From Dipteris shenzhenensis (Eukaryota), in assembly GCA_047967505.1 (NCBI GenBank), contig CM106538.1: DNA of 64,000 bases; one strand, written 5' to 3'. The translations under genes and the position numbers were made by a program. Below, piece after piece: positions 26,684 to 48,949 of the stretch. The notes under the pieces are model-generated. The model did not search any database, was not told the origin of the DNA, and was given only the letters and a program-made list of their open reading frames with translations. Position 1 is the first letter of the stretch. Each line of letters opens with the position of its first letter.

Positions 26684-27513
26684 GGGGAGGGGGAAGGGGT
26701 GGTGGAAATGGAGAAGGAAGGGGGAAGGGGTGGTGGAAATGGAGGGGGAAGGGGGAGGGGGAGGTGGAAATGGAGGGGGGAGGGGGAGGGGGTGGTGGAG
26801 ATGGAGGGGGAAGGGGGATGGGGTGGTGGAGATGGGGGGGGGGGGGGATAGAGCAAATAAAAAAAACTTGACAGACAGAAATCGAAAGGGAGGGAGAGGT
26901 GGTTACCTGAACGCTCGCCAAGTCTTTCTCGATGTAACGGGATTGTTGAGGAACAATGGACGGTGGGTGGATGGCTGGGTTATCGCTACAAGATGGGCTC
27001 GAAGTTACTTACAATGTGAGGATGGGAGTAAGGTGGTGGTTGATGGAGAGGGAGGAGTGTCTTGCGTAGGGCTCGAAAGGGAGAAGAGAATGGAGGCAAA
27101 ATGTGAAAGATGAAGAATGAGGGGGTGGAGTTGGTTTTTATAGGATTTGAGTTTAGGTTTAGGGTTTAACCCTAAACTCTTCCCGAGCCATAACTCTTTA
27201 TGGATAGCTCGGTTTGCTTTTCTGCAAAAAGGTGAAATGATCGAAATTGCAATCTCTAGGCATTTGTGTCCACTACCTAGCCTAATTGTTTATCATGTGG
27301 CTTCTATTTAAGAAATAAAGAAAATTTCTTAAGGTAGTAACCCAAAGTTGATGCTTGGGGTAGATATGGTTGGCAAGAAATGGGAAAAAAATTTTACTCT
27401 CCTTGCCCTTAACTGTTATGTTCGTGAAAGTTCGAAGTAGTTTGTTTTTTACACATACCTACGTATGTTTACTCGCTACTTGAGATGCTAGTCTCCCCAA
27501 CAATGGTGCCAAA

Positions 27514-28538
27514 TGTTAGCTCTTTCCTACTGCTTTCGTAGAAAGAGCTGGGTTCTCTCAGTATGCAGGGTTTCGAGGCTTTTTGTCACCTACAGATACA
27601 GTGGGGTTATCGGTTGTAGTATATGTGTAGATTAGGACCTCGAGTCATGTTCTGATGAGAGATGTATGCTTAAGTGTGGTAAGCAAACAAAGTGCATGCA
27701 TGTGTAAAAGGAACATATATCATCATGATTGAGGTAATGAAGGCTTTCGCCTTCATTGGGGGTTGTAGGGTTTAGGAGGAGTTTAAGGGTTAGAAGGAGG
27801 TTTCAGGGTTAGAAGGAGGTTCCAAGGTTCATAAGGAGGTTCCAAGGTTAGAAGGAGGTTCCAGGGTTTAGAAGGAGTTCCAGGGTTTAGAAGGAGGTTC
27901 CAGGGTTTAGAAGGAGGTTCTAGGGTTCAGAAGGAGGTTCTAGGGTTAGAACGAGGTTCCAAGGTTTAGAAGGAGGTTCTAGGGTTTAGAAGGAGTCCAG
28001 GGTTAGAAGGAGATTCCAAGGTTCAGGGTAGAGTACATGGTGGAGAACTCGTCTTCCTCATAGATCATGGAGTTTAAGGGATGAGGAACAAAGGGTTTAG
28101 GGGGAGCATAGGAGTGGGAGAGAAAGAAGGTGTAAGAGCATAGGGAAAAGAAGAGAGAGAAGGGAGGAGGAGGAGGGAGGAGGATGAGAGAGGAGGAGGA
28201 GGAGGAGGAGGGAGGAGGAGGAGAAAGGAGGAGGGAGCAGGAGGAGAGGGAGAGGATGGGTTGCAAGGTTGGAGGACAGGGGAGGAGGAGTTGCAAGTTA
28301 GGACATGCTTTTGGACGTGGAGTGCAAGAATGGACACTTGAGACAAATGCTTGGAATACCAAAGTAGACTCAACACAATGCCCTAAAGAGTGTGGGCTTC
28401 ATTCCATTATGGGGTATTTATACAAGTTGGAGAGCTTCTCTCTCTGCATGTAGGAATTGTAACACAAAGTTGTAACACAAAGTTGTATCACAAAGTTGTA
28501 TCACAAAGTTGTAACACAAAGTTGTATCACAAAGTTGT
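27514..28538 (-). repeat. 5' LTR of the Athila-like element, first part (resumes at 34401 after a Copia insertion)
   Basis: High identity to 13609-14460; expanded 20-bp array at ~27765-28030. Confidence 0.88.
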
Positions 28539-28652
28539 TGTGGGGATTAAAGGTCACTATGCCTTTACCCCGGTTATGTACAATACTCAAACACATATAT
28601 AAATGAATGAAAAAGAAGATTAGGGTCGTTCTGCACCCACCAAAACTTGTGG

Positions 28653-28701
<49 letters not shown>

Positions 28702-31700
28702 TCCGTTCTTACTTCCGTTGAGAGCACTCTCAACTGGTATCAGAGCCCGGGTGATCTAGCTGAGCGTGCGTGAATGCTTGAAGCTCAGTAGCTTTGTGGG
28801 AGGAAGGAGAAGCTCTGTGGGTGACTTTACTTGCATCCAAGTGTGCAGAGACCTTGGAGGAACCTTTGGAAAAGTCACTTTGGTTTTGCGACGTGGTTTT
28901 GAGAGCCTGTTAAGTGTTTTCAAAGAAAAAGTCGTTTTTTGAGCTTTTCCCTGTTCCGTTCGATGATAGAGACTCCATATTGACTTGTAGAGGCAACTAT
29001 TGCTTGCTTTTGGTATCCACTTCACTTCAGGAGCTTGGAAACACCTTCATTCTTGAATCTAGGATCATTTCATTAGATTTCTGACTCACTGTGTCAGTTC
29101 CTGCGTTTTTTGCCCGGGTGTTGGAACTCAAGTTTGGAGCAACCATTTGCAGATCTGTCAGTTCTGGTGGACTCAGGAGGTCCTAAAACTTCTATGTTGC
29201 TCATTATTCACACTCCGGTGGAGTTTACAAACAGCTATGTTTCCAAAAACCTTTTTTAGTCCGTGTGTTGGACTCAGTGATTGAGACCACGGTTTCCAAA
29301 ACCGTCTGTCCCATTGCATTTCGGATGCCCAAAAACCCCTACCTGTCAGTTCTTGCGCAATTCGGTGGAGGATTTTCAGAGTTATAGATCTCTGTGTATT
29401 CGATTTCATCTCTCTGTTATGCATTTTTCATTCTAAGGTTTTGAAACCTTAGATTTATGCCACATGGCAGTGGATAAGTGTCGACTCCCATTTCTCACTC
29501 ATCGGTTGGGATTTTGGAGTTCTGGCAGAAGAGAGATACTTGCAGATTTTCTTACTGATTCCGATTATGCAATGGCGCCCATGTTTTGAGGCATCTCAGG
29601 TTCTATTTTCAGTAGCGGTCATTACTGTGGGACTATGATTTCTTGAGCATACCTTATGTAGATCACTCTGGTTGCAGTTTGAGCAGTGTGCGCTCATTCG
29701 TGGTATGCATTGGGTTCTAGTGGATGATTTATAGGCCATTTGGATGCATTGCAGTCCTTATTGGATGCGCTGATAGGCCCAAATTGCCTTGTGGGATGCT
29801 ATTTTTATGGACGCTTTGCACATGGATGCTATTTTATGCTAAGGGACAGCTTTCACACATTGCAGGTGATGCGCTGATAGTGCTATGCTCTCTTGGATGA
29901 GATACTATTAATGCATATGCCAGTGGACGGTGTTTATGCTTGAGTCATTTGGCACTTATTCGCATTTTCTTTTGGGCCAGATTTGCTCATATGGATGCAT
30001 AGTATATGCACATGAGTCAGATGCATCTTTTGATGCTTTGAGCTTTGAGTTTTGGTGATATTTCACTCTATTGTGGCATACACATTTGGGTGCACCTGGT
30101 ATTTGGTGTGATTCTCTCTTGCAGGCACTAGCAATTGGGATTTTGTTTCATTTGCATCATGGCATCCTCTTCCATGTCTGAAAAGGAGTTTTTCAGCATT
30201 AAAAAGTTTGATGGGACAAACTTTTCTTTGTGGAAAGAACAAATAAGGGATGTGCTTATTCAAAAGAAGCAGATTAAACCCTTGGCATGTATTGAAGCTA
30301 AGCTTGCGGATATGTCTGAGGATGATTGGAATGAGTTAGATGCATTAGCAAAGTCTACTATTAGACTTCATCTTGCAGAGTCAGTTTATTTCACAGTAGT
30401 AAATGAGCAGACTACGAAATATTTGTGGAAGAAACTGTGTGCCACTTATGAGAAGGAAACTGCCTCTAATAAAGTTTACCTCATGAAGAGGTTGTTTGAG
30501 CTGCAGATGAAGGAAGGGGTCTCCATTGCTTCTCACTTGAATGAATTAAATATTATTTTCAGCCAGCTTCAGGCTCAAAAAATGAATTTTGATGCAGAGA
30601 CTAAGGCAATATTTCTCTTATGTTCATTGCCATCCTCATGGGATACCTTCCGTACAGCTGTCAGTAACTCTGCACCTGGTGGAGTACTGAAATTTGATGA
30701 TGTTGTGGGTAGATTGTTGGCCGAGGAGATTAGACGGAAGGCTATGGATGGCAACAAGCAGGATGCAGCCTTAAATGTTCAAAGGGGCAGATCACAGCTC
30801 AGGGGGAAGTCCCAAGAAAGAGGGAAGTCTCGTAACAAATCTAGGGCATGGAACATTGAGTGTTACCACTATGGCAAGAAGGGCCATATGAAAAAGGATT
30901 GCTACAAGCTGAAAAGAGAGCAAAAGGATAAGAAAAAGAATGAAAATTGGGGTGCAAATCAAAAGGAAGAGAGTCCAAGGGAGGACAAAGGAAAAGTGAA
31001 GATGGAGGAGATCAATGCAGCCACACATGATAGTGACAATGACGTCATGTCTAGTTTATCTGCAGAGTTGCTTACCACTTTGAGATGATGCATATTCCCA
31101 GGATTGGATTTTGGATTCTGGTGCTTCATTCCATGTTACTCCCCATAGGGAATGGTTCTCCACTTATGACAGTGGAAAGACAGGTTGTGTGCATCTTGGA
31201 AATGACTATGCATGTGACATAGTGGGAGCAGGTGACATAAAGTTTTATTTTGCAAATGGGTCTGCATTTGTTTTGAAACATGTGAGACATGTGCCTAAGC
31301 TAACCAAGAGTCTTATTTCAGTGGGTCAGCTAGACGATGTTGGTTTTCACACCACTTTTGGCTTTCAGAGTTGGAAAATTCAGAAGGGCTCTATGCTTTT
31401 GGCCAGGGGTGCCAAGTGTGGGACTTTGTATCCCTTACATGTATCAGGGGTATTTGATCATGTTGTTGCAATAACCGAGCAGCCAAGCACTTCTTTGTGG
31501 CATTGCAGGTTGGGGCACATGAGCCATAATGGAATGAAACTCTTATGCCATTTGGGTTATGTACCGCGAGAAGGGGAAAGAAAGAGTTTGAAAAGCTTGA
31601 TTTGGTGCATTCAGACATATGTGGTCCCATGCCTACACGGTCATTAGGCGGGGCTGAATACTATGTGACATTCATTGATGATGCAACTAGGAAAGTGTGG

Positions 31701-34315
31701 GCTTATGCTATAGCTCGGAAGAGTGATGTGTTCCAGGTATTTCAGAAATGGCTGGCCTTGGTTGAGAATCAGTCAGGTAGAACGCTTAAATGCCTACGGA
31801 TTGACAATGGTGGAGAGTATCTCTCTCATGACTTTCACCATTTCTGTGATACATGTGGGATTAAGAGGGAGTTCACATCCCCTCGTACTCCAAAGCAAAA
31901 TCCAGTTGCAAAAAAGATGAACCGTACCATTCAAGAAAGGTTGCAATGCATGCTTTCCCATGCAAGTCTTTCTAGTGGTTTTTGGGCTGAGGCAATGAAG
32001 ACTGCAGTGCATATGATCAATAGATCACCTAGTAAGAGTTTGGATGGTGGTATTCCTGAAGAGGCATGGAGTGGCAAGAAGCCCTCTTACTCTCATTTGC
32101 GTATATTTGGGTGTGAGGCATATGCACATGTGCCAAAAGAGCTTCGAAAGAAGCTAGATCCTAAGTCTAGGAAATGCATCTTTCTGGGTTATGGTGAAAG
32201 TGGAGAGATGGGCTATCGTCTCTGGGATCCAGAAGCAAAGAAGATCATATGCAGCCATGATGTGGTCTTCAATGAGAAGAAGATGCATAAAGCACCCATG
32301 AGGGATGTGGAAATGAGGAGAATCACTTTCTAGGATGTGAATCCACCTGCATATGTTGATAGATAGCAAGCTGTCCATGCACCAAATGTGTAAGAAATGG
32401 TACCACCAAGTACTCCCATAGGTATACAATCAAGGGTAGATGATGGATCATCTATTGGTGGAAATGATGAGCCAAATGTGGCTGATATGCAGGTGGGACA
32501 GCAAGCTGAAATGCCCTTGAGAAGATCTTCTAGAGTGTCTAGACCACCTGATAAGTTTATTCCAGGGGTAGACTATGTGATGCTTACTGATTGCAGGGAG
32601 CCTTCTTGCTATAGAGAGGCTATGATGCGTGAGGATCAATGCAAGTGGGAGTATGCTATGCAATCAAAGATGAGTTCACTTATGAAGAATAAGACTTGGG
32701 ACTTGGTTTCTTTTCCACATGGAAAGAAAGCATTGCCATGTAAATGGGTCTACAAAATGAAGGTCACAGGTGATGATGTGCCTAGGTACAAGGCCCGTTT
32801 GGTTGCTAAAGGGTTCAAGCAAGAGAAGGGTGTGGAATTCGATGAGATATTCTCTCCGGTTGTGAAGATGACCACACTTAGATGCATGCTTGGACTAGTG
32901 GCAGTAGAGGATATGGAGCTTATGCAGATGGATGTCAAGACAGCTTTCTTGCATGGGGATTTGCATGAGGAAATTTACATGGTGCAACCGGAAGGCTTTG
33001 AAGAAAAGGGCAAAGAGCATTTAGTTTGCAAGTTGAAGAAGAGTCTCTATGGTCTTAAGCAAGTGCCTAGAGAATGGTATCAGAAGTTTGATGCTTTCAT
33101 TCGGTCCTAGGGTTTTAGAAGGAGTGAAATTGATCAGTGCCTCTACACTAAAAGGGCTAAGGATAATAGCCTGATAATCTTGGCACTATATGTGGATGAT
33201 ATGCTATTGGCTAGCAAGAATACTTTTGAGCTAGATGCATTAAAGGCCAAGTTGCATGAGTTCTTTTGTATGAAGGATTTGGGATTTGCAAGTCATATTC
33301 TTGGTATGCGCATCACGCGTGATCGGAGTAGGAAACTCCTTTGGCTTTCACAAAAAGAGTATGTTACAAAAGTATTGCAGCGTTTCAATATGGAGGGGGG
33401 GAAGGCAGTGAGTACTCCATTGCCTCCATATGTGAAACTGAGTCATACAGATAGTCCCAAATCAGATGAGGAGAGGGCCATGATGGCCAAGGTTCCTTAT
33501 GCACCAGCAGTTGGGAGTCTTATGTATGCTATGATAGCTACTAGACCAGACATTGCATTTGCAGTGGGAGTTGTTAGCCGGTATATGGCTAATCCAAGAA
33601 AGAGGCATTGGGAGGTAGTTAAGTGCATCGTGAGGTACATGAAGGGTACCAAGGAGATGTGCATCTGCTTTGGTAGAGGAGACATGTGTGTACTTGGGTA
33701 CACAGATTCAGACTATGCAGGGCATGTGGATAGTAGGAGATCCACTTCTGGTTATGTGTTCACCTTTGCAGGTGGTGCAGTGTCGTGGATGTCTCACGCA
33801 CAGAAGTGCGTTGCTTTTTCTACCACAAAGGCTGAGTATGTTGCAGCCACAGAGGGTTGCAAGGAGGCTATATGGCTTGATTAGCTAGTGGGAGATTTGG
33901 GGATTCATACAGGTGTACCAACATTGCATAGTGATTCCATGAGTGCTATATTCAGCTAGCACGGAATCCGGTCTTTCATGCAAAGACCAAACACATTGAG
34001 GTCAGGTACCATTTCATCAGGAAGGTACTTGAGGACAAGCGCATAGAGCTTGTCAAGGTTCATACAGATGATAACCCTGCAGATATGCTGACGAAGAGTC
34101 TACCTAGTCAGCGGTTTGAGTATTGTCGTGTATTGATGGGCATTGGATAGTATGCTCACTGGTTGTTCTCCCTTAAAGGCACATTGTCCTTTAAGTGGGA
34201 GGTTGTGGGGGTTAAAGGTCACTGTGCCTTTACCCCAGTTATGTACAATACTCAAACACATATATAAATGAATGAAAAAGATGATTAGGGTGGTTCTGCA
34301 CCCACCAAAACTTGT

Positions 34316-34366
<51 letters not shown>

Positions 34367-34400
34367 TCTTCCGTTCTTGCTTCCGTTGAGAGCACTTTCA
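28539..34400 (+). mobile_element. Ty1/Copia LTR retrotransposon (Tnt1/Tork-like), decayed
   Basis: Short LTRs 28539-28732 and 34204-34400, each with a (CT)n tract. Exact TSD GTTGT. PBS TGGTATCAGAGC 28735-28746; PPT AAGTGGGAGG before 34204; ~1.4-kb leader. Confidence 0.95.
30159..34150 (+). pseudogene. Copia gag-pol pseudogene
   Basis: KFDGTNFSLWK gag, LDSGASFH protease, VHSDICGP integrase, QMDVKTAFLHG and YVDD RT, YTDSDYAG RNase H. Several stops and frameshifts. Confidence 0.93.
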
Positions 34401-36089
34401 GTTGTAACACAAAGTTGTAACACATTCTCTTTCTACATGTAGAAGTTGTAATACATTCTCTTTCTACATGTAGAAGTTGTAACACATTCTCTTTCTACAT
34501 GTAGAAGTCATATGTCGAAGTTGTAACACAAATTTGTGCAGGTGTGCAATATAAACTAGTCTCAAACTCAGGTTCTATCATTTAAAGGTAACTGATTAAA
34601 CACTCCCTTTGGAGCTGTAGAGGCAAATCATGGGTGTGTGGACAAAGCCAAAGGAGACAAGCCACAAATTCTCGTGGAGCCAAACATTTGTGACAAATAC
34701 TCGGAGCAATATGTTTTCATGCCAAGAGCTACCCACCAGAAAACTGGAGCAATATGTTTTTGTGCCAAGGGGAAGAAACCCTAGCATCAATCACCACAAA
34801 AAAACCTATTTTCGAAGAGGAACATTGGAACTCCAGAGCTCCTATAATCTTTTCCACCACCACTTTGCCAGGCGATTCATGTGCCAAAACTAATTTGCAT
34901 TATCTAAAACCAATGTGGGGCAACAAAGCTTTATACAAAGAAGGTACCATAATGTGGGATAGCCTCAAAAGATGCACTAATGAATCTAGGGAATCCAATC
35001 TTCAAGCCTATCCTTAAGCTCAAGTGGTAGCACTACCAGAAAAGACCGAAGCGTTTGAGTAATATTTTTCCATAGAGAATGATAATGCATTCCTAAACCA
35101 TATTGTCTGGCAACCAAAAAAAAGGATATCACGGTACCATCGTCATGAATCACATCAGCTACAAAGCAGAGCTCTTTGAAACTAATAAAATAGGAATGTC
35201 TAGTTCCTACAAATCTAGGGAAGGAAACCTTTGACCAATGTATACTTTCAGCTCTTAAAGCTTTTCCCTACAAATAGTCGTGGCGGCCATGCCATTCTAG
35301 GTGGGAGAGGATATGCTTCCAATCAAATGACACTTTGGAGACCAAAGGGTAGCCTTGATCCCACCATCAATACAACCATAAAGAAAATCCCACTGAGTTG
35401 GCTGCCCAATAACCAAAAGCATGGGTGGTGATTTGTAAAAGCAAATAGCACATCATGGCAGCCCAAGGTTGATCTCCTTGCATAAATTGCAGCATCATTT
35501 TCCCCTTATGAGAGCAAGGATATGCACATGAATGTTAAGAATATTTAAACTCCCATGCATCTTTGGCGAATAGGGATGTTGCACTAAAAGCAATCTCAAA
35601 CTTTTTCCTGCCATGTTTGGAATGCCAAAAAGTTTCCATAATGGCTGACATAAAGTATGTAAGATCTCCCTTGCCAAATATGACCAAATGCAGGTAAAAC
35701 TAAATGTATGCGATCAAAATAGATTGGACTATCCATAGTCAAACATGCAACGGCAAAGTTGCCAATTTCCAATATTCAAGCTTTTTCTTCAATTTTGCAA
35801 GTACCAAGTAATCATCTAGCCCAAAGGATAACCAAATGGCAAACTAACCATTAGGGGAGAAATGGGATCTCAAAAGGGCCTCATAAGGAATGGATTAAGA
35901 AATGGGTTAGTCCTAATGAAAGGGCCAAGGAGGGGCCAAGGTAGGTCCGAAAAAGTCCTAACCGCCCCCCACCTAGGTGGGTTAAGCCCAAAAGTGACCC
36001 AACCTCTTACACCGCTTACACAACTCTTACTCCTAAGTGGGAACAAGCAAATTCAAAATTCAAAATTCAAATTTTGAATTCCATTACTC

Positions 36090-36530
36090 GTTCTCTCTCC
36101 TCCCTCCCTCCCTCCCCCTCCCTCCCCCCTCCCTCCCCCTCCTCACTCCCTCCTCCCCCTCCCCCTCCTCACTCCCTCCTCCCCCTTCCCCTCGTCAATC
36201 CCTCCTGCCCCTCCCTCCTCCTACCCCTCCCTCCCTCCTCCATGCTTACTCCTTCTCCCCTCCCCCTCCCTCCCTCCTCCACACCTGCTCCTCCTTCCCT
36301 CCCCCTCCCTCCTCCTCCATGATTGCTCCTCCTCCCCCATCCCTCTTGCTCCTCCCTCCTCCCTCCCTGCTCTTCCACGCCTACTCCTGCTCACCCTCCA
36401 TGCCTGCTGGTCCACCCCCCTTCCCTCCTCTTCAATTGCTGGTCCTCCCTCCCCCATCCCTCCTCCTCCTTGCCATGCCCCTTCCTACGTGTTGCTCCTT
36501 CAAGCCTACTTCTCCACACCTTCTCCTTCT
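36090..36530 (+). repeat. Pyrimidine-rich (CCT/CCCT) low-complexity tract upstream of the transposase
   Basis: Seen directly. Confidence 0.85.
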
Positions 36531-36546
36531 CTACACTCCTTTACTC

Positions 36547-39184
36547 ATGGCACCATTTGAGAACGTCTCCAACTACTACCAAGTTCACTTAGAGTTGGAG
36601 GCTGAGTATGCAAGCACACAGTTTGGGATGGATGGGAGCTTCCAAAATGCACACTTTTCATCCGCAAGGAAAGAAGCATCTCGACCTTTGGGTAGAAGGA
36701 TCCTTGTATCCTTTAGATAGTACCAACCGAAAGAGCCCTCCTTTCCATACAATGCATGAGCTAGTTTGGTTTGTTGGAAATGGACATGCGGGGTTGCTTG
36801 GTTATTGCAATCGGTTAAACAATGCTCACTCATTGGCTATGCAAGCAAGTGAAATGTGGGGTTGCTTGGTTATTGCAATCGATTAAACAATGCTCAATCA
36901 ATGGCTATGCAAGCAAAGCGAGATGTGCAGAGCCAAAGCAAAGTAGCTAGCACATTTCAAAAATAGCACCATTATTGCAATGCATAACTCTATGCAGGAT
37001 CTTCAAAGGAAGAACGAGGATATTCATGATAAAGCCAAAGCATTGGACCTAGAGTGACAGAAATTACAAAAGTGACTCTGTAAGCTAACTGAAACCAAAA
37101 AAGGCTTGGAAAGATCTATATACAATCAAGTTCAAGGAGCCATAGAGAAGGAACCAAAGAAGGCAAAATAACGAGTGCAAAAGATAAAAGAGGCACCTTT
37201 GGGATTGAAGGATAGGAAAATAGGGTACTTACATAACATGGATGCATTGGCACCCACTGGTGGTGCTAGAAAGAGGAGGGTCCGGGCTACAAGGTTGGTT
37301 ATTAAATGTTCCAATGAAATTACACTCTTTTGTGCTACACTATTTGTGACTAAGTTTTTCTTGTGTTCTTCTTTAGGAACTTCATGGAAGATGTGATGGG
37401 AAGAACGGACGGGGATGATATTGATTGTTCATATGCTCTAGCTAGTTTATTAAAGTCAAGCGATGTCATTGGGATACTAGGGGCCCCAAGATACAAGCGC
37501 CTATGTGTGCAATTTGCTAAAAAGGTGATGAAGGACTTCAAGGATATTGTGGACGCAAAGGAGATGCTTCCAGCTTGTGATATTGCGAGTGTAAGTCGTG
37601 AAGCTTACACATCTGTTTTCAAAATTTTCAAGTCTGGTATTTTGGGAAAGTACAAGAAGTCTATAGTGCCCGGGTAGTGCCCCTACCCACACCTTGGTCT
37701 GTGAGACGTGCACAAACCAACATGCAAGAGAAATACTTGGACAGTACCATTGCGTAAGGGGCACAATGACTTGGAAGAGTAAAAAGAAATCTGGCTTGCA
37801 AACCTTTGAGATGAATTTTTTCAACAATGTCTACATAGATGTTGAGAAATTGCAACAAGCAATGGTCAAATTCTATGGCATGAGAGAAGATGGTAAGAGG
37901 AAATCCATAATAGCATTGCACTTTACTTAGTTCATTTCCTATATCATGTTTATCCTAATGATTTCTCTCTTTTATTGTATAGAATGCAATGGAAAGCTCA
38001 TATTTGTCATCAAAATGGATGAAGCTCAATTGGTGAAAGAACAAAAGTTAGAGAGAGTGAGCATCTGCATATGAATAAATCCTTAGCCTTTGTTCAAGGA
38101 AACGAGGAAGTAGAGTAAGATTTCTCAGTGCAATTAGAGAAAGAGATATGGTGGCTTGCAGCATTTGAGACTCCGAAAGCGTGCCATGAGACATTGAAGT
38201 GGGTTCTAGATAGTGGGATCCCATCTTGCCCATCCCACTAGAGAGAGTACACATATGTACTTTATGCATAGAACTGCGCATACTTGATAAGTTGTTGTAT
38301 TTGCATCTTGTTTATGCTTAGAATTTAATTCCGCAAGAAGTATCCACACGATGCATTGCAGAAGTTGAGAAGTTGATGTCAGAGATAGAATTCCATGGAG
38401 GACATGTCAAACTTGAGGATAAGAAAATGTCTGGGGCAACACATAATCTTCTTGCTAAAGTGTCTATGGGTGGAGGGAAGGCAAGGAGATTCCTATCTAA
38501 CCACAATATCAACAAAGACAAACATACATTGTTTCAAAGCAGTTTGGGTTGGGAATACTGGAAAGCATTGTGTGAATGCATGACCAATAAGGCTTCTCAT
38601 CCTCAAGTAGCAACTTTGAGAGCTAAATTATGGACAAGGTAGATGCATTGATAAAATTGCTTTGCCAGGTTCAAATCGATGAGATGTATTATGAAAGGTT
38701 CAGGATGGCTGTGAAAGATTTATGAAATTAATGGTGGTGAAAGCACGGGGGGAGTCACACATTACGCATTACATGGTAATCTTATCACCATCGTAATATT
38801 TAGCACTTGCTTTATAAAAAGTTTTTGTTTGCTGAAATGATGCTCATCATGTTCTCTATGCACACAGACCATGGTTTGTACAAAATTGGGGCCCTTTGTC
38901 CATTTGGAATACACAAGGCATGGAGAAGTCGCACCATAGAGCCAAGGCAACCTGTTTCAAGAACTCAAGGGCATGGTGGTGGTGTCACTCGTAGCAATGC
39001 ATTGCATGAGATGTTTGACTGGTTTTTAAGATGTCTACTAGGTAGGACTTTGAAGTTTGAAAAGGCAAAGGCATCAGAATTTGCAAAAGCAGTTCAAATT
39101 GTATCAAAGAATAGAAGGCATAGTGCTTGGAAAGCATCCATAGGGAGACGAGGAGTCATATATGTTGGTTGCAAGCTAGAGTGA
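36547..39184 (+). pseudogene. Decayed intron-containing DDE transposase of RAG1/Transib-like (CMC group) type
   Basis: Manual splicing and translation gives ECNGKLIFVIKMDEAQ (candidate first Asp 38018-38020, after a GT-AG intron 37893-37982), WDPILPIPLERVHICTLCIELRILDKLL (~38214-38295), and ITHYM|HVLYAHRPWFVQNWGPLSIWNTQGMEKSH (38761-38775 plus 38848-38934). The last motif parallels RAG1 ITNYFHKTLAH...GSIGAWASEGNE. Stops and frameshifts present. Confidence 0.7.
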
Positions 39185-39309
39185 TAGAAGGGACGAGATG
39201 GGTCCAACCAGCAATAGAAGCTATGGTGTAATTGTATACAGTTATGAAATGAATATCTTGCTTATTTTGACCACAATTTGTGTACTCGTTCTTAGAGTCC
39301 AAGGTCTGT

Positions 39310-39550
39310 GCGAGGTAAGGAGGTTGGGGAAGGTGGGGAAAGGGTGAAGGAGGGGGAAGAGAAGGAAGGGGCACAGGGCGGGGCAAGGGGGAGGGGGCGG
39401 AGTGGTAGCAAGGGTGGGGGGAGGGGTGTGATGGTGGGATGGGGGATATGGGGAAGGGCGACGGGTGTGGGTGGGGGAAGTAGGGGGGAGGGCAACCGTG
39501 GGAGGGCGACGAGAGTGGGGGGGTTGGAGGGGTTAAAGCGGGGGGCATGA
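39310..39550 (+). repeat. G-rich low-complexity spacer between the transposase and the H3-like gene
   Basis: Seen directly. Confidence 0.85.
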
Positions 39551-39596
39551 TGAAATCCTAAACGTAATTAAAAGGGGTGTCAAAAGATGATGGGAC

Positions 39597-39604
39597 TATA
39601 TAAA
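39597..39604 (+). promoter_or_regulatory. Putative TATA box of the H3-like gene
   Basis: TATATAAA ~35 bp upstream of ATG 39637; AATAAA at 40688-40693, ~90 bp after the stop. Confidence 0.4.
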
Positions 39605-39636
39605 ACATTTTTAAAAACCCTACCTCTCATTATTCA

Positions 39637-40597
39637 ATGGCACGAGTGAAGAACACTGCTAGACCCACAGGACGCCGCCTCCACCTTTCCTCCTCTAGCT
39701 CCACCACCTCCATGGCATCTACACACACAAACCTATCCAGGTTTGGTGGCACCTCATCAAACTCTTGTGAGCCCTCCCCGAACTCTCATGAGCCCTCCCC
39801 CGACTCTCGTGAGCCCTCCCCCAATTCTCATGAGCCTTCTCCTCCGCAGTCTCGTGATCCTTCTCCTCCGTAGTCACATGAGCCCTCCCCCAAGTCCCAT
39901 GAGCCCTCTCCCAAGTCTCGTGAGCCCACTCCCCAGTCCCATGAGCCCACTCCCAAGTCCCAAGAGCATGAGCCTTCCCCTGATTGAGAAAAACGTGTTT
40001 GAGAACTCCCTGATATCAAGAGGCTTATGGATAGGGGTCAACAGACTGCAAGATCTTCCCTCTCCCAATGATAGCGCCCGTTGTGGATATGGTACCTGCA
40101 CCCGTAAATAGGGTAAAGCAGACGCCGATGAAGCCCCATCCCAAAAAAGGTGAAATCTCAAGACATCCGTGAGAGGGGGATTCAGGGGAGGATCGGTGCA
40201 AAGAAGAGTAGCGCAAGAAGTTCAAGGCAAACAAGAGGCCGTGGAACCATGTTCGGGTACATGTACAACCTCTACCAAGAGTCAGGAAGCCATACAGAGC
40301 AAAGCCAAGAGCACGGGCCCTAAGGGAGATCAGACAGATGCAGAGAAGACCGTCGACAACCTGATCCTGCATGTTCCCTTCTAACGTGTGGTACGGGAGA
40401 CAGCACAGGGGTACAAGTACGATCTATGATTCAATACAGGAGCTATGGGGACGCTCTAGGAGGCTGCGGAGCAAGTCACCACCTCTTTGTTCGGGGACGC
40501 CAACTTGTGTGCCATCCACACAAAGTGCATCATGGTCATGGACAAGGACATGGCTTTGGCAAAGCGGCTACGGAGGGACCCAAGCTTGAAGCCCTAG
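39637..40597 (+). pseudogene. Divergent histone H3 variant pseudogene with extended N-terminal tail
   Basis: Starts MARVKNTAR. From 40284: RKPYRAKPRARALREIRQMQ [2-nt frameshift ~40344] KTVDNLILHVPF*RVVRETAQGYKYDL*FNTGAMGTL*EAAEQVTTSLFGDANLCAIHTKCIMVMDKDMALAKRLRRDP, which aligns essentially without gaps to the H3 histone fold. The three stops fall at H3 Q68, R83 and Q93 and are explained by C>T changes. Confidence 0.9.
39765..39985 (+). repeat. ~21-bp coding tandem repeat (SHEPSPx / SREPSPx heptads) in the H3-like tail
   Basis: About nine imperfect copies of TCTCATGAGCCCTCCCC-like units. Confidence 0.85.
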
Positions 40598-40782
40598 AAT
40601 TTCTTGGAGCCCACCCTTTGGACTTAGACTACCCCCTGCCCTTGAAGGCACAATCTTGTATCTGAGGCCCAAGGGCGGATCTTTTTTAATAAAATATATC
40701 TACATGTTGTACACTATTGCATTGTTGTGAATTCTCCATGTTTATGACTGACGGTACTACTCATTTTAAAGTAATTTTTGAA

Positions 40783-41008
40783 TTCTACCAAATCCTAGAG
40801 GAATCTCACCATGGCGCAGAAGGCAAAAGTGACCGACGTCGCGAGGAGCCCAGAATGTCCTAAACCCGCCATGGCGCGAATTTGGGCATCAAGTCCAAAA
40901 TGCCCAAATTTGCACCATGGCAAGTTTAGGGCATTCTGGGCTCCTTGTGACATCGTAGACACTTTTGCCTTCTGTGCCATGGGGAAATTCCTCCAAGATT
41001 TGATAGAA
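40783..41008. repeat. Long inverted repeat / hairpin (~107-bp arms, 10-nt loop)
   Basis: TTCTACCAAATCCTAGAGGAAT...AATTTGGGCAT [CAAGTCCAAA] ATGCCCAAATT...ATTCCTCCAAGATTTGATAGAA. Confidence 0.92.
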
Positions 41009-41381
41009 ATGAACTTTGGATACCTAGAATTGGCAAAAATCATACTAAATTGGCTAGAAATGCATTAAATTAACACAATTAAAAGGATGGAGAAAGTATA
41101 TCATAAATGACTTTAAAAAAATACAATGGAATAAATATTATGAATTCATGATGAGCAACGATGACTCAAAATAAATAAGAAAGACATGTAGTCATTAAAG
41201 TCATGTATCCATTGAAATATATGTTTATATTTACAAGAGGCCTCACAGGCTATCTTTCTTATTTAGTTTGAGTACATTGAGAATAGGGGTCTTTGAATCC
41301 CCTAGTGGACTCCTAGATATAAACCTAGCTGCAATAGCACTAGCATCCTTCTCTCCTACTGCTAAAGACATAGCCGTTGTT

Positions 41382-41576
41382 GCTGTCAATGCCCTGACGT
41401 GAATGTTTGATTCAAAAGCACTGATAGCAGCTAGGCGGTGTACCAAAATCACTTTGTCGTCATTCCGAGTAATGTTGGAAGCTGTCAATGCCCTGTTTGA
41501 TCCAAAAGTACATTGATAGCAGCAGCTAGGCGGTGTACCAAAATCACTTTGTCGGCATTTCGAGTAATGTTGGAAT
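41382..41576 (+). repeat. Two-copy direct tandem duplication (~95-100 bp)
   Basis: GCTGTCAATGCCCTG...GCTAGGCGGTGTACCAAAATCACTTTGTCG...GAGTAATGTTGGAA occurs twice. Confidence 0.85.
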
Positions 41577-44049
41577 ATCCAATAGCGCGCAACAATGCCT
41601 TGCATTTCAACAGCTCTGTAGACCCTCAAGGAGAAAACTTATTGTGGAAGACCATGAGGTACTCTGCGACTTCGCCGAGGTAGTGGGCCAAAGAATGATC
41701 TCGCCCAAATGTGCTGCGAACATTACCCCATCGAGATGAGAATTCATCAACCTCAAACGCCTCCTGCAACAATTCAACAAACATTAGAAGACCGACAAAA
41801 CAAATTATACCAAAAGAACATCAAAATATAAAATATTGTTCGAACTTACTACTACAGCGTCGTCGACTTCTATCCCTTCCACATTTGCAATGTTGATGGA
41901 ACCAGGTGCTGTGTGATGTTCCATTTGGGAGGTGGAAGCTTTCTCCTAACCTTTCTTGGGGGTGGAAGCTTCTGCATGAGAGGGATGTGCATCATATATG
42001 GACATGCTTACATCCTTCATTGAAACCAGTGTCGTCAAGAGAAACTCTTCCATTGTCTGATCTTCGAAACCTAAAACCTCAGGATCTTTGACATGTGTCA
42101 AAATCGAGCCCGGATAGCATTCCAAGTGCCTCAGCCTCTCGTAGTCCAAAAAGAACCTCTATGTCATGGAGGAATACGTACTCTTTTCCATCAATGATGA
42201 GGGGGGACAAGGACCATCAATCAGCTTCTGGGTCAGCGGTCTCCAATGCAGATTCAAGCTCTACTCTTACTGGGGGCTCTTGAAGTAGGCTCAATGCTTG
42301 AGCTGCTTCCATCTCCTCTCTTGCATGGTCGATACTCTCTTTTGTGTACATGTCAGAGTTTAGTCTAGCGACGAGGATATCAGCAATTCTACTAGAGGGG
42401 ATGCTGGACGATGAGACTTCTTCCTCTAAATTTCCTTCTTAGAGAAGAAATATAAATGTCATCTCCCATGAAAGGAATTTAGTGCCTGTATTTTTCGTGA
42501 TCCCTGGTTCTAAGCCCTGGTTCTAAGATGTCTTTTACTTCTACCGTCTTAAACCCTTCCTCTGTAAGATTATCACAAAAGTGGACGAAGCGCTTCACAA
42601 ACTTGGGTTTGGAACAAATACTTGGTGTAATCTATCGGAACCCATCTCTTTGAAGAGTTGTCAACTGTATATGTAAAATTTATGAAATTCTCTTGCATGT
42701 AGTGGATGAGATTTGAGAAGTCATCCTTGGCTCGCATATATGTGCCTAGGACATCTAAAGTCCTATCAAACACAAAAAATAGCTATTCCTTGCGACCTGC
42801 AATCATGGAGCACAGCTCTAGCTGAATCCATGGCAAATAGCGATTGATGGAGTGAGTAACTTTTGAGGGTGGGAGTTTCTATGGCTCTCTAAAGGTGGAA
42901 TTGAGAATGTAAGGTAAAAATGGCTCTTACCCCTTTATGTATATCAAAATCCTAAAAATTAAAACTAATCATAAAATCCCCAAATATTTTGAAAAACATT
43001 TACCTTGAACTCAAAGGAGAAAACATCAAAAGAAATAACATGTTAATTTAATTGTCCATCATCTTTTGAAACAAGAACTAAGATTTGGTAAAAAATTAAA
43101 TGCTGCACTAGCCAAATACATTGTTAACAATCTTCAAAGTTGCAAGAGGAATGAAATTGGCACTATGCATGCACTTTTCCACACGACGGCTGATCTTACC
43201 ACCATTTAAGATAAAGTTAAAGGACTCCGACATGCTGTCCTCCATGGCCAATAGGTATTATCGCACATCCCTTAAAGTCCATTGCGATGTGTCATTCTCT
43301 TTCTTGACATCTCCCTCTTCAACATCAATAGACATACTAACCCCGTATTGTCTTCATCATTAGAGTCTAGGAGAAGCCATCGACCATTTGTTTTCTTCCA
43401 GCGCTTGTACTGAAAAGCTAAATACAACATTTGGCATGATAAATGATATCTAATAACCACATTGCCTTTACATGCGTGACATTGAAACACATCACCCTTT
43501 TGTTCGCCTAACCTGGTTTCCTAATTCATCCCCAAGTAAATCTTCAAGAGCATTTTCATCTACATGCTTGCAAGACCACATAGTTTTTGTTCTATGCATA
43601 TGTATATTCTGAAACAAAGTAGCAAAAATGTGCAGAGGCATAAACCAAGATAACCTTGCCCATTTGGATCCAAATGTAAACTTCATGGCCATGCCTACAT
43701 CCTTTGCAATCTTGTCCTTGTACCATTACAATGTCCTTGAGTTCACATTGCTACAATCCATGTCTTGAAGTTGTGGTGGTGCAACATAAATAACAATATC
43801 ATTTTAACTCTTGAACTTTCCATCATATTATCATGTCACAAAAAGTATTATCAAAGATAAATGCCTCAGTAATTTAACACCTTAAGAAAAAGAAGATGCA
43901 AAATATAATGGCCCTAGTAACAGACTTCAAAACTGAAATGAACTAGCTCATAGAAGATTTTGTCCAGTTTAGATGCATCTACTCTACTCCAGACTCCAAG
44001 CTTCAACATAGTTGTCAATCTCTCTCCAAGGAGCCATCCTTAGTTTCTC

Positions 44050-45730
44050 AAGGAGATCATTTTAGCCTTTAGACGTCTGCAAACCTTTCTCTCATTTCCT
44101 TGCTAGCATCTTGATCTTTATATCGACAAAGCATTTCATAGTTCCTGTCTTCATATGGCATTCGATCAGTGTCCAGCTTGATAATGCTAATCCTGTTTCG
44201 GGTCTCTGATATCTGCAAATAGCATCAGAATTTCGTTGGGCCATCATTATAATCTTTAGGTAGAAAAATAAAATACAACAACAGGATGCACAGATTGTCA
44301 GCTTCACAGGATTCAAGGACCAATTAGAAGCGATGCCTATAGAAAAGATAGATTGACGTACAGACCAAAGAAGCCTCCCCTAATCCATCAGAATTGCAGA
44401 AGCATGAGTAGCCTTTGATTGACCTCGTCTAACCCTTTCTGAGATCTGCTTATTTGTTAATACACCACGACTGCTAGCCTCAGAAATCATCAAAGCACAA
44501 ATATATAGTCCAAGGGTACCCAGGATAAATGTGATAACTACAAAGTCTAGCATTTAGGAACCCCTGGTTTGCTTACAACCCTTCCAAGCTTAGCAACATC
44601 TCTGCCCATCCCTTATTAATAAGTTATCCTCTGCATAATTCAAAAGGCGTTAGCTCTAAGGAGGTCTTGAAATGTTAAGAATTTGCAGCTCACGAGTGTA
44701 CTCATTCACTCAATCTAAGCTGACCTTGTCAAGAGAGAAGAGGAGCTGGGAATAACTATCTAGAAATGCGTCTAGGAATAACTATCTGGGACTAACAAAG
44801 AGCAGAGGGCTCTTTGTTGGATATTTTTTTGCTGCACATTCCTTTCCCTAAAGTCCATGTAACTTCACCTCTATAGAATCTTTCAATAGGATTACCCATC
44901 TCTCTCTAGAGAATCTCTTTCCAATCCTAGATCTTTCTCCTCCTATGACTAATGAACTTCCAGGTTATGTTTCAAAGGCTCTTAGCTTCTTCACAATTTA
45001 TGAAGACATAATTGATGTCTTCAGGGATCTGACAGCATGGACACAAGCCGTTTCCAAGCTTAAGTTATCTTTCCTTTTCTCGAGGCCCTGTGTAGATTAA
45101 CCATGTGGTCTTGTTTATTTTATCGAATCCCCCTCCCATATTTTTATGGCCCTTTTCTCCCATTTCTTGGGGGGGCTTTGATCAGTTGAATTTTCGATGT
45201 AGAGTGGTCCCAATCTCCAAGTTTGATCTCACATAAAGAGCTTGGCCATTTTGGTTCATAGTGAACCACACAGCCGTAGTGACCTTGAACTCTTCCTCTC
45301 TGTTCCAAATATAAGTTCTTAAATTAGAGCCGCCTGAGCCTGAAATTTCCCCTCAGCTCTGCCACCAATAACCAACCATTTCCTTTTCCAATAATACCAT
45401 AGGCCGAGGTTCCTACAGCCTTTTGATATAAGGTGCTTTTAAAGCAGGCTTCAAGAAGAACAAGGGGATGAAGAGAGAGTCCAGACCAGCTTGGCAAAAA
45501 GCATTTCCACACGAACATGACCTTCTGATCCTGCTAGGCTTCGCAGATGCCTTTGAATAGAGAGAAGCCCTTAGCTATGAACTCGGCCTGGCTGGTGACT
45601 GAGGACATCTCTGGAACCTACATCTACCTGGGAAAACCTGAAGGCTACAACCCCTTAATATTGCTCCTTAACAAGATAGCACCATCAAGGCTTGACGAAT
45701 CTAGCTGGAGGCCAGGTTCCCAGACCACTT
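44050..45730 (-). mobile_element. Possible old LINE remnant
   Basis: Only weak resemblance of the 45324-45518 translation to the post-RT region of plant LINEs; no diagnostic motif confirmed. Confidence 0.3.
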
Positions 45731-46342
45731 GAAATATTTGAGATGTCTAACCCACTTTATTCTTAGGAAGGAGTAACACGGTGCACTTTATGATCATGTG
45801 GTAATACAAATTTGATAATCTGCAAAAACCCAAAAGTATTATGCTTAAAATAACAGGGGATTGAACATCATGAGGACGAATCTGTAGTAAGCAAATTGCA
45901 ATGATTCGTTATATTACACATGGTGCACTTCATAATCATTATGGTAATACCAACTTGATACTCTTCAAAACCCCAGAAGGATAGTTATGAAAATAACAAG
46001 GGAATTCAATATAGTCGGGACAAATCTGTAATAAGACAAAATGCAAACATGACACTTAACAAAATCGTGAAAAAGTCACAAACTGTATTTTGCAGAAACT
46101 CAACCGTCCTTTGAGGTCTGCTGATATGGAGCAAGGAAAACTGGATTACTAGAAACTGCTTGATTTAAACAACCGATTCAAAATCTTGTAAAGCAAACTC
46201 ACTAGAACACACGTGATACGAACTCACTTTCATCCTTTCATTCTCCTGGTCTGAGTCCGCCTCACCTATGTTTATGTCATGCTAGCATCAACATTTCAAG
46301 TAAGAGCAATAAACGCTACCATTGTTACACTTAGCTTTAGTT

Positions 46343-48443
46343 TCAACAAGAACACTTTCCGTTCTTGAAAACATGAAAGCGCTTAACATCTCTGACAAGA
46401 ATAGTTCGCTGCTCCATGTTGGATATAAGTGCTGTAGCCGAATGAAGTTTCTGCAAACCCAAAGATATTTTACAACAGTATGGGTGTGGGACAAGCCATA
46501 GCCAACTTCCCACTGTGCCGACATAGCTCAAATTCTTTTAGATTGTCCTGGGACAGCCAATGTACATCTGGTACATATCCTTCTTCCATTATTTTGAAAG
46601 AAAGATCTTCTGGCTTTGCATATATATAATTGTGTTGGAAATGTCCTGTATCCCCGACCAAAAATGAATGCACAATTCTGTCAACGTCAGTCCAACTCTG
46701 TCCTGGCTTTCTCCATGCTTGTTCTCTTAATCTCATTAACTCAACATGCTTAGCTTCCTCCTGCATGTGAGCATCTGCATAGATGTTAGACATCAAGACA
46801 TAAGCTGCAGCATCCTGTTTATCCAGTTCCACTGCATGTTCAAAGGCCCACCTTCCAAGCTCCACATTTCCCCACTTCCAACAAGCACCCAACACAGTAT
46901 GCAACAGCATGAGATTAGGATTGAATGGCATCTTCTTTATCACCCCTACTGCCTTGTCTAATTGGCCTGCACGGCCAAGGAGATCAACCATGCAATTGTG
47001 GTGCTCAATAGTTGGAGTGATGCCATAGTCTCTGCTCATGGCCTCAAAGTATGTCTGGCCCTTCTCCACTAGACCTGTGTGACTGCATACAGAAAGAATG
47101 CTCAGGAATGTGACCCCATCTGGTTTTATGTCTTCTGCTCTCATTCTGTCAAGCATAAGAAAAACCTTTTCACTCTCTCCTAGCTGGGCCTACCCTGCAA
47201 TAAGTGCAGTCCACGAGACTGCATTTCGAACTGGAAGCTTGTCGAACACTTCCTGTGCTTTTGGAAGCAAGCCACACTTGGCATACATATCAACCAAGAC
47301 GTTACCAACAGACAGATCTCTTTCCAACAAGCCCTTTCCTGAAATCTCAGCATGTATTTCTCGGCCCTTGTCTATGGCTCCTATAATGCCACAAGCTTTC
47401 AAGCTGCAAATAAATGTGACCGCACTTGGAGAGACGCCCTCCAATTGCATCTGTTCGAAACAGTTCAGTGCGTCCTGACCAAGGTCATGTTCAGCATACC
47501 CTGCGATAAGTGCATTCCACGAGACTGCATCTCGAACTGGAAGTTTGTTGAACACTTCCTGTGCTTTAGCCAGCAAGCCACACTTGGCATACATATCAAC
47601 CAAGGTGTTACCAACAAAAGCATTTATTTCTGACAACCCCTTTCTCGCAATCTCAGCATGTATGTCTCGGCCCTTGTCTATAGCCCCTATGCTGCCACAA
47701 GCTTTCAAGCTGCAAACAAATGTGACCGCATCAGGAGAGACGCCCTCCAATTGCATCTGATCGATACAGTTCAGTGCGTTCAGACCAAGGTCATGTTCGG
47801 CATACCCTGCGATGAGTGCATTCCAGGAGACTCCATTTCGAACTGGAAGTTTGTCGAACACTTCCTGTGCTTTTGCAAGCAAACCACACTTGGCATACAT
47901 GTCAACCAAGGTGCTTCCAACAAAAGGATTTCTTTCCAATGACCCCATTCTCACAATTTCAGCATGTATTTCTCGGCCTCTTTCTGTATCTCTCAGCCTG
48001 GCACAAGCCTTTAGTAAGGCCACGAACGTAAAGCCACTAGGATGTACACAGTCCTCCTGCATTTTCTGGTGCAGCACGAAGGCATGCTCTAACTCCCCAC
48101 ATTCAATATAACCAGTGATGAGTGAAGTCCAGGAATACTCATTCCGATCAACCAACCTATCAAAAACCTGCTGGGCATCACACATGCTTCCAACTTCCAC
48201 CAACATAGGGACGAGGTAGTTCCCGAGTGACTTATGAGCTTCCAGCCCACTTTTGCGCAGGTAGGCATGCAAGCGCAGGGCATACACTGAATTTTTGTGT
48301 TTTCTGCACTTGCGCAAGATGCATGTCAAGTTTTCAACGGAAGGCCGCTGGGGCATGCGTTCCAAAGAAGCGAGTGCCTCCTCTAAGCTAAGCTCTGGCA
48401 ATTGTGCTATGGGGTTGTGCATGGCCTTGTTTGCAGTCTCCAT
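46343..48443 (-). pseudogene. PLS-class PPR gene with E and degenerate DYW domains (organellar RNA-editing factor type), disabled
   Basis: Repeated LVDMYAKCG / VSWNALIAGY / PDAVTFVCSLKAC motifs. In-frame TAG at 47190-47192 (IAG*AQ, where sister repeats have IAGYA). E domain (AAYVLMSNIYA), PG box KPGQSWTD, then a frameshifted DYW region (HSGKLAMA / VKYLWVC / HSATALIS...VRDVKRFHVFKNGKCSC*). Confidence 0.9.
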
Positions 48444-48949
48444 TTTCTCGAGCGTGCCTTTAACGCAACTTGAATTGTACCAGGCGTCTATCCAGAGCCA
48501 ATCCTTGGTGAGTTTCTGCTTGAAATCTGGGCTCTTGGGCTGCAGACTCGTCAGAATTAATCTACAGCTAAAAAAGTTGAGTTGGGCTCATCGTGTTTGC
48601 TGTTTCGATTGTCAAACCACTGGGAGGTACTCCTTCCATAAGTGCTCGGTAGTACAAGATTGTCGTACAGTAGTTGTCAGCATTGGCACACAGCCCTCTG
48701 AATCTGGCGAGCGGCGAGCTGATGGAAATAGCGATCCAAAATCATCATGCAATGCAAAGTTCATTAAAAAATCTTGCATGCAATTGCCCAAAATAATGAA
48801 GACACCACCCAAGTTAAACTCAAGTAAAGCCAAAAAGAAACTCCAGTTTGGTATTCCAAAAAATCAAAATAATACATAGATTTTACAATACTTGGTCCAA
48901 ACACGTCCAAATGCCTTCCAATTCCACTGTCTCTAATGAGCCATTGCTA

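Follow-up and report, generated by a model that had tools for sequence, protein, structure and literature searches.

Remnant of a probable long-tailed histone H3 variant gene in the fern Dipteris shenzhenensis

We examined a 64,000-nucleotide stretch of contig CM106538.1 from the Dipteris shenzhenensis genome assembly GCA_047967505.1 (hereafter, the window), which carries the remnant of a histone H3-type gene. This remnant is the only H3-like locus that tblastn detects in the 64-kb window. An earlier reading of the same letters, referred to here as the original prediction, had described a cryptic and heavily diverged H3-type gene with a long N-terminal tail. The features of the locus, all on the plus strand, are given below by window position; the two elements upstream of the start codon come from a motif scan of 39000-39640.

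39637-40597, plus strand: H3-type gene remnant of 961 bases, comprising an N-terminus, a heptad array, a proximal tail, and a complete histone fold in one orientation
39597-39603, plus strand: TATA-like box, 34 nt 5' of the ATG, of putative function
39615-39622, plus strand: telo-box-like element AAACCCTA, 15 nt 5' of the ATG
39637-39678, plus strand: H3-like N-terminus MARVKNTARPTGRR with the start codon, in frame 1 (by translation)
39768-39967, plus strand: 21-nt (7-codon) repeat, about 9 copies, in the ATG frame (Tandem Repeats Finder)
39871-39873, plus strand: premature stop TAG within the repeat, in the ATG frame
39985-39987 and 40000-40002, plus strand: premature stops TGA and TGA in the ATG frame
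40027-40059, plus strand: second motif resembling an H3 N-terminus, MDRGQQTARSS, in the ATG frame, aligning with KQTARKS of the related protein P0155
40060-40095, plus strand: interval that must contain the first frameshift (ATG frame to proximal-tail frame)
40095-40280, plus strand: proximal tail, homologous to the tails of the related proteins P0153, P0154, and P0155 (tblastn)
40170-40172 (TGA) and 40209-40211 (TAG), plus strand: premature stops in the proximal tail
40212-40244, plus strand: RKKFKANKRPW within the proximal tail
40281-40343, plus strand: alpha-N region VRKPYRAKPRARALREIRQMQ, matched by tblastn to residues 36-57 of plant H3.1
40344-40345, plus strand: second frameshift, by gain of two bases or loss of one, separating REIRQMQ from KTVDNLI
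40346-40597, plus strand: histone fold (alpha1-L1-alpha2-L2-alpha3) with a 3-residue C-terminal extension
40382-40384 (TAA), 40427-40429 (TGA), and 40457-40459 (TAG), plus strand: premature stops in the fold
40595-40597, plus strand: native stop TAG
40689-40694, plus strand: AATAAA, about 90 nt 3' of the stop

The tail extends from the ATG at 39637 to the codon at 40281 that tblastn aligns with V35 of H3, a length of about 215 codons, as had been proposed. From approximately 40095 to 40343, translation of the second frame reads PAPVNRVKQTPMKP...RKKFKANKRPW...VRKPYRAKPRARALREIRQMQ.

The identity of the fold as an H3-type domain is well supported by profile and structure searches. As the query we used the translation of 40346-40597 with X placed at the stops. 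The hidden Markov model of the Pfam family PF00125 (Histone), a check that the original prediction had called for, matches this piece with an E value of 3.4e-15 and 56.8 bits against a cut-off of 26.4. At E ≤ 0.001, 173 PDB sequences match the fold, and residues 2-78 of the query align without gaps to solved H3.3, H3.1, and H3.2 chains, the best of which is 5bnv_A (H3.3) with an E value of 1.4e-19. There is no insertion or deletion in the 77 aligned fold residues. Alpha-N, alpha1, L1, alpha2, L2, and alpha3 are colinear with solved H3, alpha-N being encoded in the preceding frame, and the H3 alignment continues unbroken across the frameshift at 40344/40345. The fold is identical to plant H3.1 at 49-50 of 97 positions, so that about 49% of positions differ, within the 40-50% estimated earlier by eye. 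The motifs named in the original prediction are all there: ALREIR (in the frame of 40212-40343), PF*RVVRETAQ, DL*F, L*EAAE, NLCAIH, and KDMALAKR. Three of them, however, contain stops, at the positions of Q68, R83, and Q93. The predicted signature residues were recovered as well: the alignment gives F84, A107 (in GDANLCAIH), and a loop 1 of canonical length, and Q68 counts as kept only after reversing a single C>T change, its codon being TAA instead of CAA. Pfam returned no family for the distal tail (P0002), for 40212-40361, for an alternative open frame at 39650-40108, or for 40035-40169, and Rfam returned no match across the whole window, including no histone 3' stem-loop.

The locus is a pseudogene rather than a functional new histone. 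Translation and tblastn reveal 8 premature stops and at least two frameshifts, as the original prediction of a broken gene had implied, and with these defects it cannot be translated into a histone. Three stops lie in the ATG frame, two in the next frame, and three in the fold frame; QQTARSS is read in frame mod3=1, and PAPVNRVKQTP onward in frame mod3=0. The three fold stops occupy the positions of Q68, R83, and Q93, which are conserved in all H3s, and each is one C>T change away from the conserved residue. The stop at 39871 in the repeat (TAG) faces CAG (Q) at the same place in the neighboring unit. Single C>T changes are thus the evident cause of four stops, three in the fold and one in the repeat, as judged from the aligned codons. 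We gave no weight to the other four, since any stop codon can be written as the product of a C>T change. The observed/expected CpG ratio is 0.47 in the gene and 0.36 in the whole window. We also considered an intron in place of the first frameshift and rejected it: the interval is coding by homology and is too short.

To place the gene among known histones, we searched 1.84 billion cluster representatives with the fold and obtained 5775 matches at E ≤ 0.001, none above 56% identity. Among the matches inspected, a single unnamed protein of 132 aa, P0022, shares the tail motif, as RKKFKNDKRPW. A search with P0022 yielded close relatives at 76-96% identity (P0153 to P0164, P0200, and P0267), all unnamed and from short ENA contigs; the family comprises at least 13 clusters at 90% identity. 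P0154 (189 aa) and P0153 (141 aa) are complete open reading frames (ORFs), and P0155 extends further upstream, with KQTARKS inside its tail. Other members (P0158, P0267, P0160, P0161, and P0162) are truncated, frame-shifted, or extended, P0158 and P0267 having an identical out-of-frame C-terminus; the source organism or organisms of the family may also carry many expressed or assembled broken copies.

The proximal tail of the window copy ties it to this family. In Smith-Waterman alignments the segment 40095-40280, taken without alpha-N, scores 87 against P0155, 89 against P0154, and 67 against P0153, and none of 2000 composition-preserving shuffles (mean score 30, standard deviation 5.8) reaches any of these values. 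The same segment shows no similarity to the plant H3.1 tail, for which the score of 23 is reached by 546 of 2000 shuffles. Of the 386 proteins retrieved by the histone searches, 9 carry the motif KKF[KN]xx[KR]RPW, all of them members of the P0022 family, and RKKFKxxKRPW sits about 35 residues before ALxEIR both in the family and in the window copy.

The fold carries family marks of its own. At eleven positions the window copy agrees with the family consensus where most other rows of the alignment carry a different residue. Among these shared derived residues, V at column 36 and Q at column 89 each appear in 0 of 46 nonfamily rows and D at column 112 in 1 of 46; in all, five shared derived residues are nearly unique to the P0022 family. 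The fold motifs EAxxQxxTSxF and MD[KR]D are confined, among the 386 proteins, to the window copy and family members. The C-terminus has the same length in both, with DPSLKP in the window copy and DPALRH and DPTLRP in the family, a 3-residue extension beyond H3. An unrooted maximum-likelihood tree (53 rows, 103 columns) unites the window row with six family rows in a clade supported at 96/95. Fold identity between the window copy and the family amounts to 46-51 of 97 positions. On this sequence evidence, the locus is no orphan; we read it as an inactivated member of the family, other members of which are intact (P0022, P0153, P0154, and P0155). The original prediction had presented it as a stand-alone new H3 class, and that part of the proposal falls away.

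Further searches for relatives added little. A profile search was dominated by tandem double-H3 gene models, and beyond the four known family members nothing informative appeared among the 120 rows listed. When metagenomes were scanned with P0153, an H3 relative was encoded in 209 of 312 stretches; the best 80 loci reach at most 57% identity and none belongs to the family. An ESM Atlas search with P0154 returned generic H3 clusters only, the best (0.92) being a large cluster automatically named CSE4, and a search of the same resource with the distal tail returned nothing above 0.79.

The pattern of substitutions in the fold suggests that the gene was constrained for a long time before it was lost. 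We measured column conservation among the 46 nonfamily rows and asked how often the majority residue is retained. In columns conserved at 90% or more, it is present in 31/38 positions of the window copy and 35/38 of the family consensus; the corresponding values are 10/22 and 9/22 for columns conserved at 70-90%, 7/25 and 6/25 at 50-70%, and 2/12 and 2/12 below 50%. The window copy thus has almost the same profile as the consensus of the intact family. Its retention of the majority residue in 31/38 near-invariant columns, against only 19/59 variable ones (Fisher P = 2.8e-6), suggests that most of its divergence predates the loss of selection, in agreement with the earlier selection originally proposed. 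Most of the roughly 50% divergence from H3 would then have arisen under purifying selection. Where the ancestor of a near-invariant column can be inferred, 6 of 35 residues have changed, and with the three stops added, roughly a fifth of near-invariant codons would have been hit after constraint ended. These proportions are consistent with a diverged variant that functioned for a long time and then decayed over a substantial, though much shorter, period.

The distal part of the tail, from 39637 to 40060, probably belonged to the same former ORF, as indicated by its strand, the shared frame, its unique H3-type start, and a QTAR motif in common with P0155. Across all six frames of the 64 kb, the pattern MAR.K.TAR has a single occurrence, at 39637, where MARVKNTAR provides an N-terminus of the ARTKQTAR type. 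A Ser-rich stretch separates this N-terminus from the 21-nt repeat (direct-repeat family D3), for which Tandem Repeats Finder reports a period of 21, 9.2 copies, and 81% matches. By the codon table its units encode EPSP[N/D/K]S[H/R] and EPTP[Q/K]S[H/R], with H and R alternating via CAT and CGT codons. This alternation would fit CpG decay of an originally more basic, SPKSR-type unit. The repeat array is seen only in the dead window copy, and no family protein seen extends that far upstream. P0165, an unnamed CENH3-like protein, has QTARK-type motifs repeated in its tail and offers a parallel for internal duplication.

Whether the family belongs with CENH3 or stands apart is best judged from signature residues and from the tree. 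CENH3 proteins are set apart from H3 by a longer loop 1, replacement of Q68, replacement of F84 (usually by W), a change of T107 to A, C, or S, and a divergent tail. The alignment gives the P0022 family W84, A107, IPRAAF, and a C-terminal extension; it keeps Q68, and its loop 1 is +0 (P0153) or +1 (P0022) relative to H3. W84 is also found in P0167 and P0165. The window copy shows A in place of T107 and a tail that diverges from H3 in length and sequence. One split of the tree, with support of 97/86 (the starred split), places the window copy, the family, P0167, P0177, P0165, and 10 angiosperm CENH3-type rows opposite 33 H3-side rows. Two further unnamed ENA proteins near the family in the tree, P0177 and P0199, are H3 variants that combine PRAAFQRVVR, F84, and A107 with a canonical loop 1; their C-terminus is extended by about 40 residues. 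The first PDB match of P0153 is an H3.3 entry showing W and AAE in the alignment. Given W84 and A107 in the family and its side of the starred split, it cannot be claimed that the locus is no relative of CENH3. The original prediction that it is neither canonical H3 nor a typical CENH3 stands in its first half, with 49-50/97 identity and no match to the H3.1 tail. We tentatively assign the family to the CENH3 lineage, at a little short of even odds; a separate long-tailed variant is also possible, with the odds leaning against it. For the locus itself, our verdict is that it is a histone-variant pseudogene, probably of the CENH3 lineage.

Fern CENH3 has been analyzed in two papers (PMC5024113 and PMC11687628). 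For eight fern CenH3 sequences, Table 1 of the former lists a mean omega of 0.067; the tree length is 7.6 substitutions per codon. With so low an omega but so deep a tree, an identity of about 50% between distant fern lineages would not be odd. The papers that our literature searches listed contain no description of a long-tailed H3 variant from ferns.

Taken together, we interpret the locus as a nonfunctional, intronless relic of a lineage-specific, long-tailed histone H3 variant in the fern nuclear genome, with a probability of roughly 0.78. Before its death the gene would have encoded a protein of about 320 residues, the fold of which may have paired with H4 in the nucleosome, while a disordered Ser/Thr-Pro-rich tail would have carried two ARTK-like motifs. 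After inactivation, amino acid change at otherwise invariant positions would have reached roughly 20%, and much of the later damage may be C>T decay in methylated DNA, producing the stops.

Several observations weigh against this interpretation or against its CENH3 component. The similarities that link the distal tail to the rest, apart from position and frame, are weak: the local alignment of MARVKNTARPTGRR with H3.1 residues 1-40 scores 34, reached by 65 of 5000 shuffles, and that of MDRGQQTARSS with KQTARKS of P0155 scores 25, reached by 158 of 5000. The repeat can also be read in another frame that is open for 153 codons and has no Pfam match, so openness there carries little weight. On the fold alone, the approximately unbiased (AU) test does not reject grouping the window row with canonical H3 (delta lnL 18.45, p-AU 0.194), and the very long end branch of that row (1.32) makes its placement in any tree unsure; the case for family membership therefore depends no less on the tail and the shared derived residues than on the tree. 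The 120 listed relatives of P0022 include no fern protein, and the source of the family need not be a fern. The starred split is a clade only if the root lies among canonical H3s; it could reflect long-branch attraction, and named fern CENH3s are absent from its rows. The window copy lacks three CENH3 signatures, in that it keeps the Q68 position, F84, and a canonical loop 1. The P0022 search does not rank named CENH3 proteins above generic H3, and the best PDB matches of P0153 are H3.3 chains, with Schizosaccharomyces pombe Cnp1 only at ranks 15-16.

Some of these observations are shared by an explanation that we consider unlikely, namely, that the gene was a specialized noncentromeric H3 variant, e.g., a reproductive-cell histone, whose Ser/Thr-Pro tail modulated DNA binding or was phosphorylated and whose function was unrelated to CENH3. 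At the Q68 position, at F84, and in its canonical loop 1 the window copy resembles H3 rather than CENH3, the best PDB matches of the fold are H3.3, and P0177 and P0199 combine F84 with a canonical loop near the family in the tree. The roughly nine (S/T)P(K/N/D/Q)S(H/R) heptads also recall the SPK(K/R) extensions of sperm-specific H2B as described in PMC9903204. The intact relatives, however, carry W84, A107, and the C-terminal extension, and the clade lies on the angiosperm CENH3 side. Moreover, the repeat is acidic or neutral (E, H) rather than basic like SPKK, and its array is found in the dead window copy only.

A lower standing still falls to a processed pseudogene, that is, a retrocopy of spliced mRNA from a multiexon CENH3 gene of the host that then decayed neutrally. 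Plant CENH3 genes normally contain introns, and from 40101 to 40591 no intron-like gap breaks the colinearity of the locus with P0154 (189 aa) and P0155, whose ORFs are uninterrupted. The two CENH3 pseudogenes reported in cowpea provide a precedent (bioRxiv 10.1101/2020.01.07.897074). Against a retrocopy, counts of A in 20-nt bins reveal no A-rich tract after AATAAA, and there is no target-site duplication, the flanks sharing only one 8-mer. The TATA-like and telo-box-like elements lie 34 and 15 nt 5' of the ATG, where a retrocopy would not have carried them along; the telo-box motif has a known meaning in plant promoters. The retention of 31/38 near-invariant columns at about 50% divergence likewise points to long selection and not to a gene that was dead on arrival. 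Given both promoter-type elements near the ATG, and neither a poly(A) tract nor a target-site duplication, a recent retrocopy is less likely than a duplicate made at the DNA level or an intronless gene retired at its native locus. Also conceivable is an old retrogene that acquired a promoter.

The relic may, in a more speculative version to which we give still lower odds, be the fossil of an undescribed fern-lineage class of H3 variant distinct from the working CENH3. Such a gene would be intronless, with its own TATA/telo-box promoter, and would encode about 320 residues, with two ARTK-like motifs around (S/T)P heptads and a mixture of H3 (Q68, F84, loop 1) and CENH3 (A107, C-terminal extension) signatures. 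Its intact fern members would serve specialized chromatin, for example in spermatid or spore nuclei.

It is very improbable that the locus is an ordinary H3.1 or H3.3 copy whose divergence is entirely postmortem drift. This reading could draw on the AU test (p 0.194), on an identity to H3.1 (49-50/97) about equal to that with the family (46-51/97), and on the lack of introns, since plant H3.1 genes are intronless, as is the window gene. It is opposed by the proximal tail, which matches the family (0/2000 shuffles) and not the H3.1 tail (546/2000), by changes that avoid invariant columns (31/38 versus 19/59 kept), by the lack of any indel in 77 fold residues despite about 50% divergence, and by the five shared derived residues nearly unique to the P0022 family.

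We give next to no credence to a gene that still functions, with its stops and frameshifts being assembly errors or its stops removed by U-to-C RNA editing, as occurs in fern organelles: a U-to-C change could turn each of the 8 stops into a Q or R codon, the three fold stops fall exactly on conserved Q, R, and Q, and the host is a fern with a pentatricopeptide repeat (PPR) gene in the window. Any stop, however, can be read as a C>T product, which leaves only the three fold sites and one repeat site informative, base editing cannot mend two frame changes, 6/35 near-invariant residues with an inferable ancestor are also replaced, the DNA is of nuclear type with long terminal repeat (LTR) retrotransposons, and U-to-C editing is not known from nuclear transcripts.

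The relic of a long-tailed variant that we favor lies outside all LTR pairs found, and these pairs all lie outside 34400-46400. Capture by a transposon was considered and rejected: the LTR pairs are distant, and the only nearby inverted repeat (40778-41013) is downstream and does not flank the gene. That repeat is a hairpin resembling a miniature inverted-repeat transposable element, 180 nt 3' of the H3-like stop, with two nested inverted-repeat pairs (54-nt and 56-nt arms, 85-86% complementary). Upstream, a C/T-rich low-complexity tract occupies 36067-36470, and a G/A-rich tract of the complementary type follows 2.8 kb downstream at 39300-39540, ending about 60 nt before the TATA-like box.

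Elsewhere in the window, the PPR gene lies on the minus strand at 46470-48587, spread over two adjoining open frames of 239 and 465 codons. It includes three tandem 306-nt units of repeated PPR-motif blocks at 47188-48099 (88% and 70% identity to the first), and its best named relatives are fern proteins (Adiantum and Ceratopteris) at no more than 59% identity. The window also holds copia and gypsy remnants and nested LTR retrotransposons (13608-28478, 20600-27100, and 28537-34368). A copia element with open gag/pol frames (22243-26370) has LTR pieces that are 97% identical (21114 and 26345) and is nested in a larger element whose repeats at 13608-14398 and 27513-28478 match at 90-99%; a further LTR pair lies at 28537 and 34202. 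On the minus strand at 59567-60805, a stop-free frame of 412 codons weakly matches the MCM P-loop domain (E = 3.8e-6) and the MCM AAA-lid (E = 4e-6) and may be a diverged or decaying MCM-type gene.

The locus alone does nothing, and its value lies in pointing to an unnamed family of intact, long-tailed H3 variants in public data. It suggests that an H3 variant lineage with a long tail and mixed H3/CENH3 signatures existed in a fern genome and was long constrained before this copy died. Should the family prove to be fern CENH3, the locus would be one more CENH3 pseudogene, which could help in a minor way to date duplication and decay events in the large, methylated genomes of ferns. If the family is not CENH3, it would represent an undescribed H3 variant class in seed-free plants.

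Of the systems with which the window copy can be compared, the P0022 family is the nearest. Both have the RKKFKxxKRPW proximal tail and a KQTARKS-like motif within the tail, and they share the fold motifs TV(E/D)N, RVVRE, EAAEQ(M/V)(A/T)TSLF, DAN(M/L)CAIH, and MD(K/R)D. Where the family has W84 and IPRAAF, F84 and ILHVPF stand in the window copy. Between QTAR and RKKF the tail of the copy is about 20 residues shorter, and a further 130 codons (MARVKNTAR and the heptad array) extend upstream of the point reached by any family protein seen. Unlike the intact family proteins, the window copy is broken.

Compared with plant CENH3 (HTR12-type; Actinidia, Camellia, Gossypium, and Hibiscus), the window copy has the same kind of long tail that starts with MAR.K and cannot be aligned to H3, and it shares A107, a C-terminal extension past H3, and the side of the 97/86 split. 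It differs in lacking the longer loop 1 and a GGKGRPW-type C-terminus, in keeping the Q68 position, and in having F84 instead of W; 40-45 of 97 fold positions are identical, fewer than with canonical H3. Canonical plant H3.1 and H3.3 share with it a gapless fold of equal length, the Q68 position, F84, and LQEAAE, with 49-50/97 positions identical. About half of the fold nevertheless differs, the window copy has the 3-residue C-terminal extension, and its tail of about 215 codons, against 35, is without similarity beyond the first 9 residues.

Dead copies of H3 variants beside functional relatives have a counterpart in cowpea, for which bioRxiv 10.1101/2020.01.07.897074 describes two functional CENH3 genes and two pseudogenes. 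The cowpea pseudogenes are likewise dead copies of a centromeric-type H3 variant; the window copy looks much older and more diverged, and the centromeric role of its parent is only putative. Oligopeptide expansions in the tail of Drosophila Cid were reportedly described by Malik, Vermaak, and Henikoff in 2002. Sperm-specific H2B variants, according to PMC9903204, have N-terminal extensions rich in SPK(K/R) repeats. The units of the window copy differ in reading EPSPKS(H/R), with an acidic residue and few lysines, and in being known from a dead copy only, and they share with both systems the arrangement of tandem short Ser/Thr-Pro units in a histone N-terminal tail.

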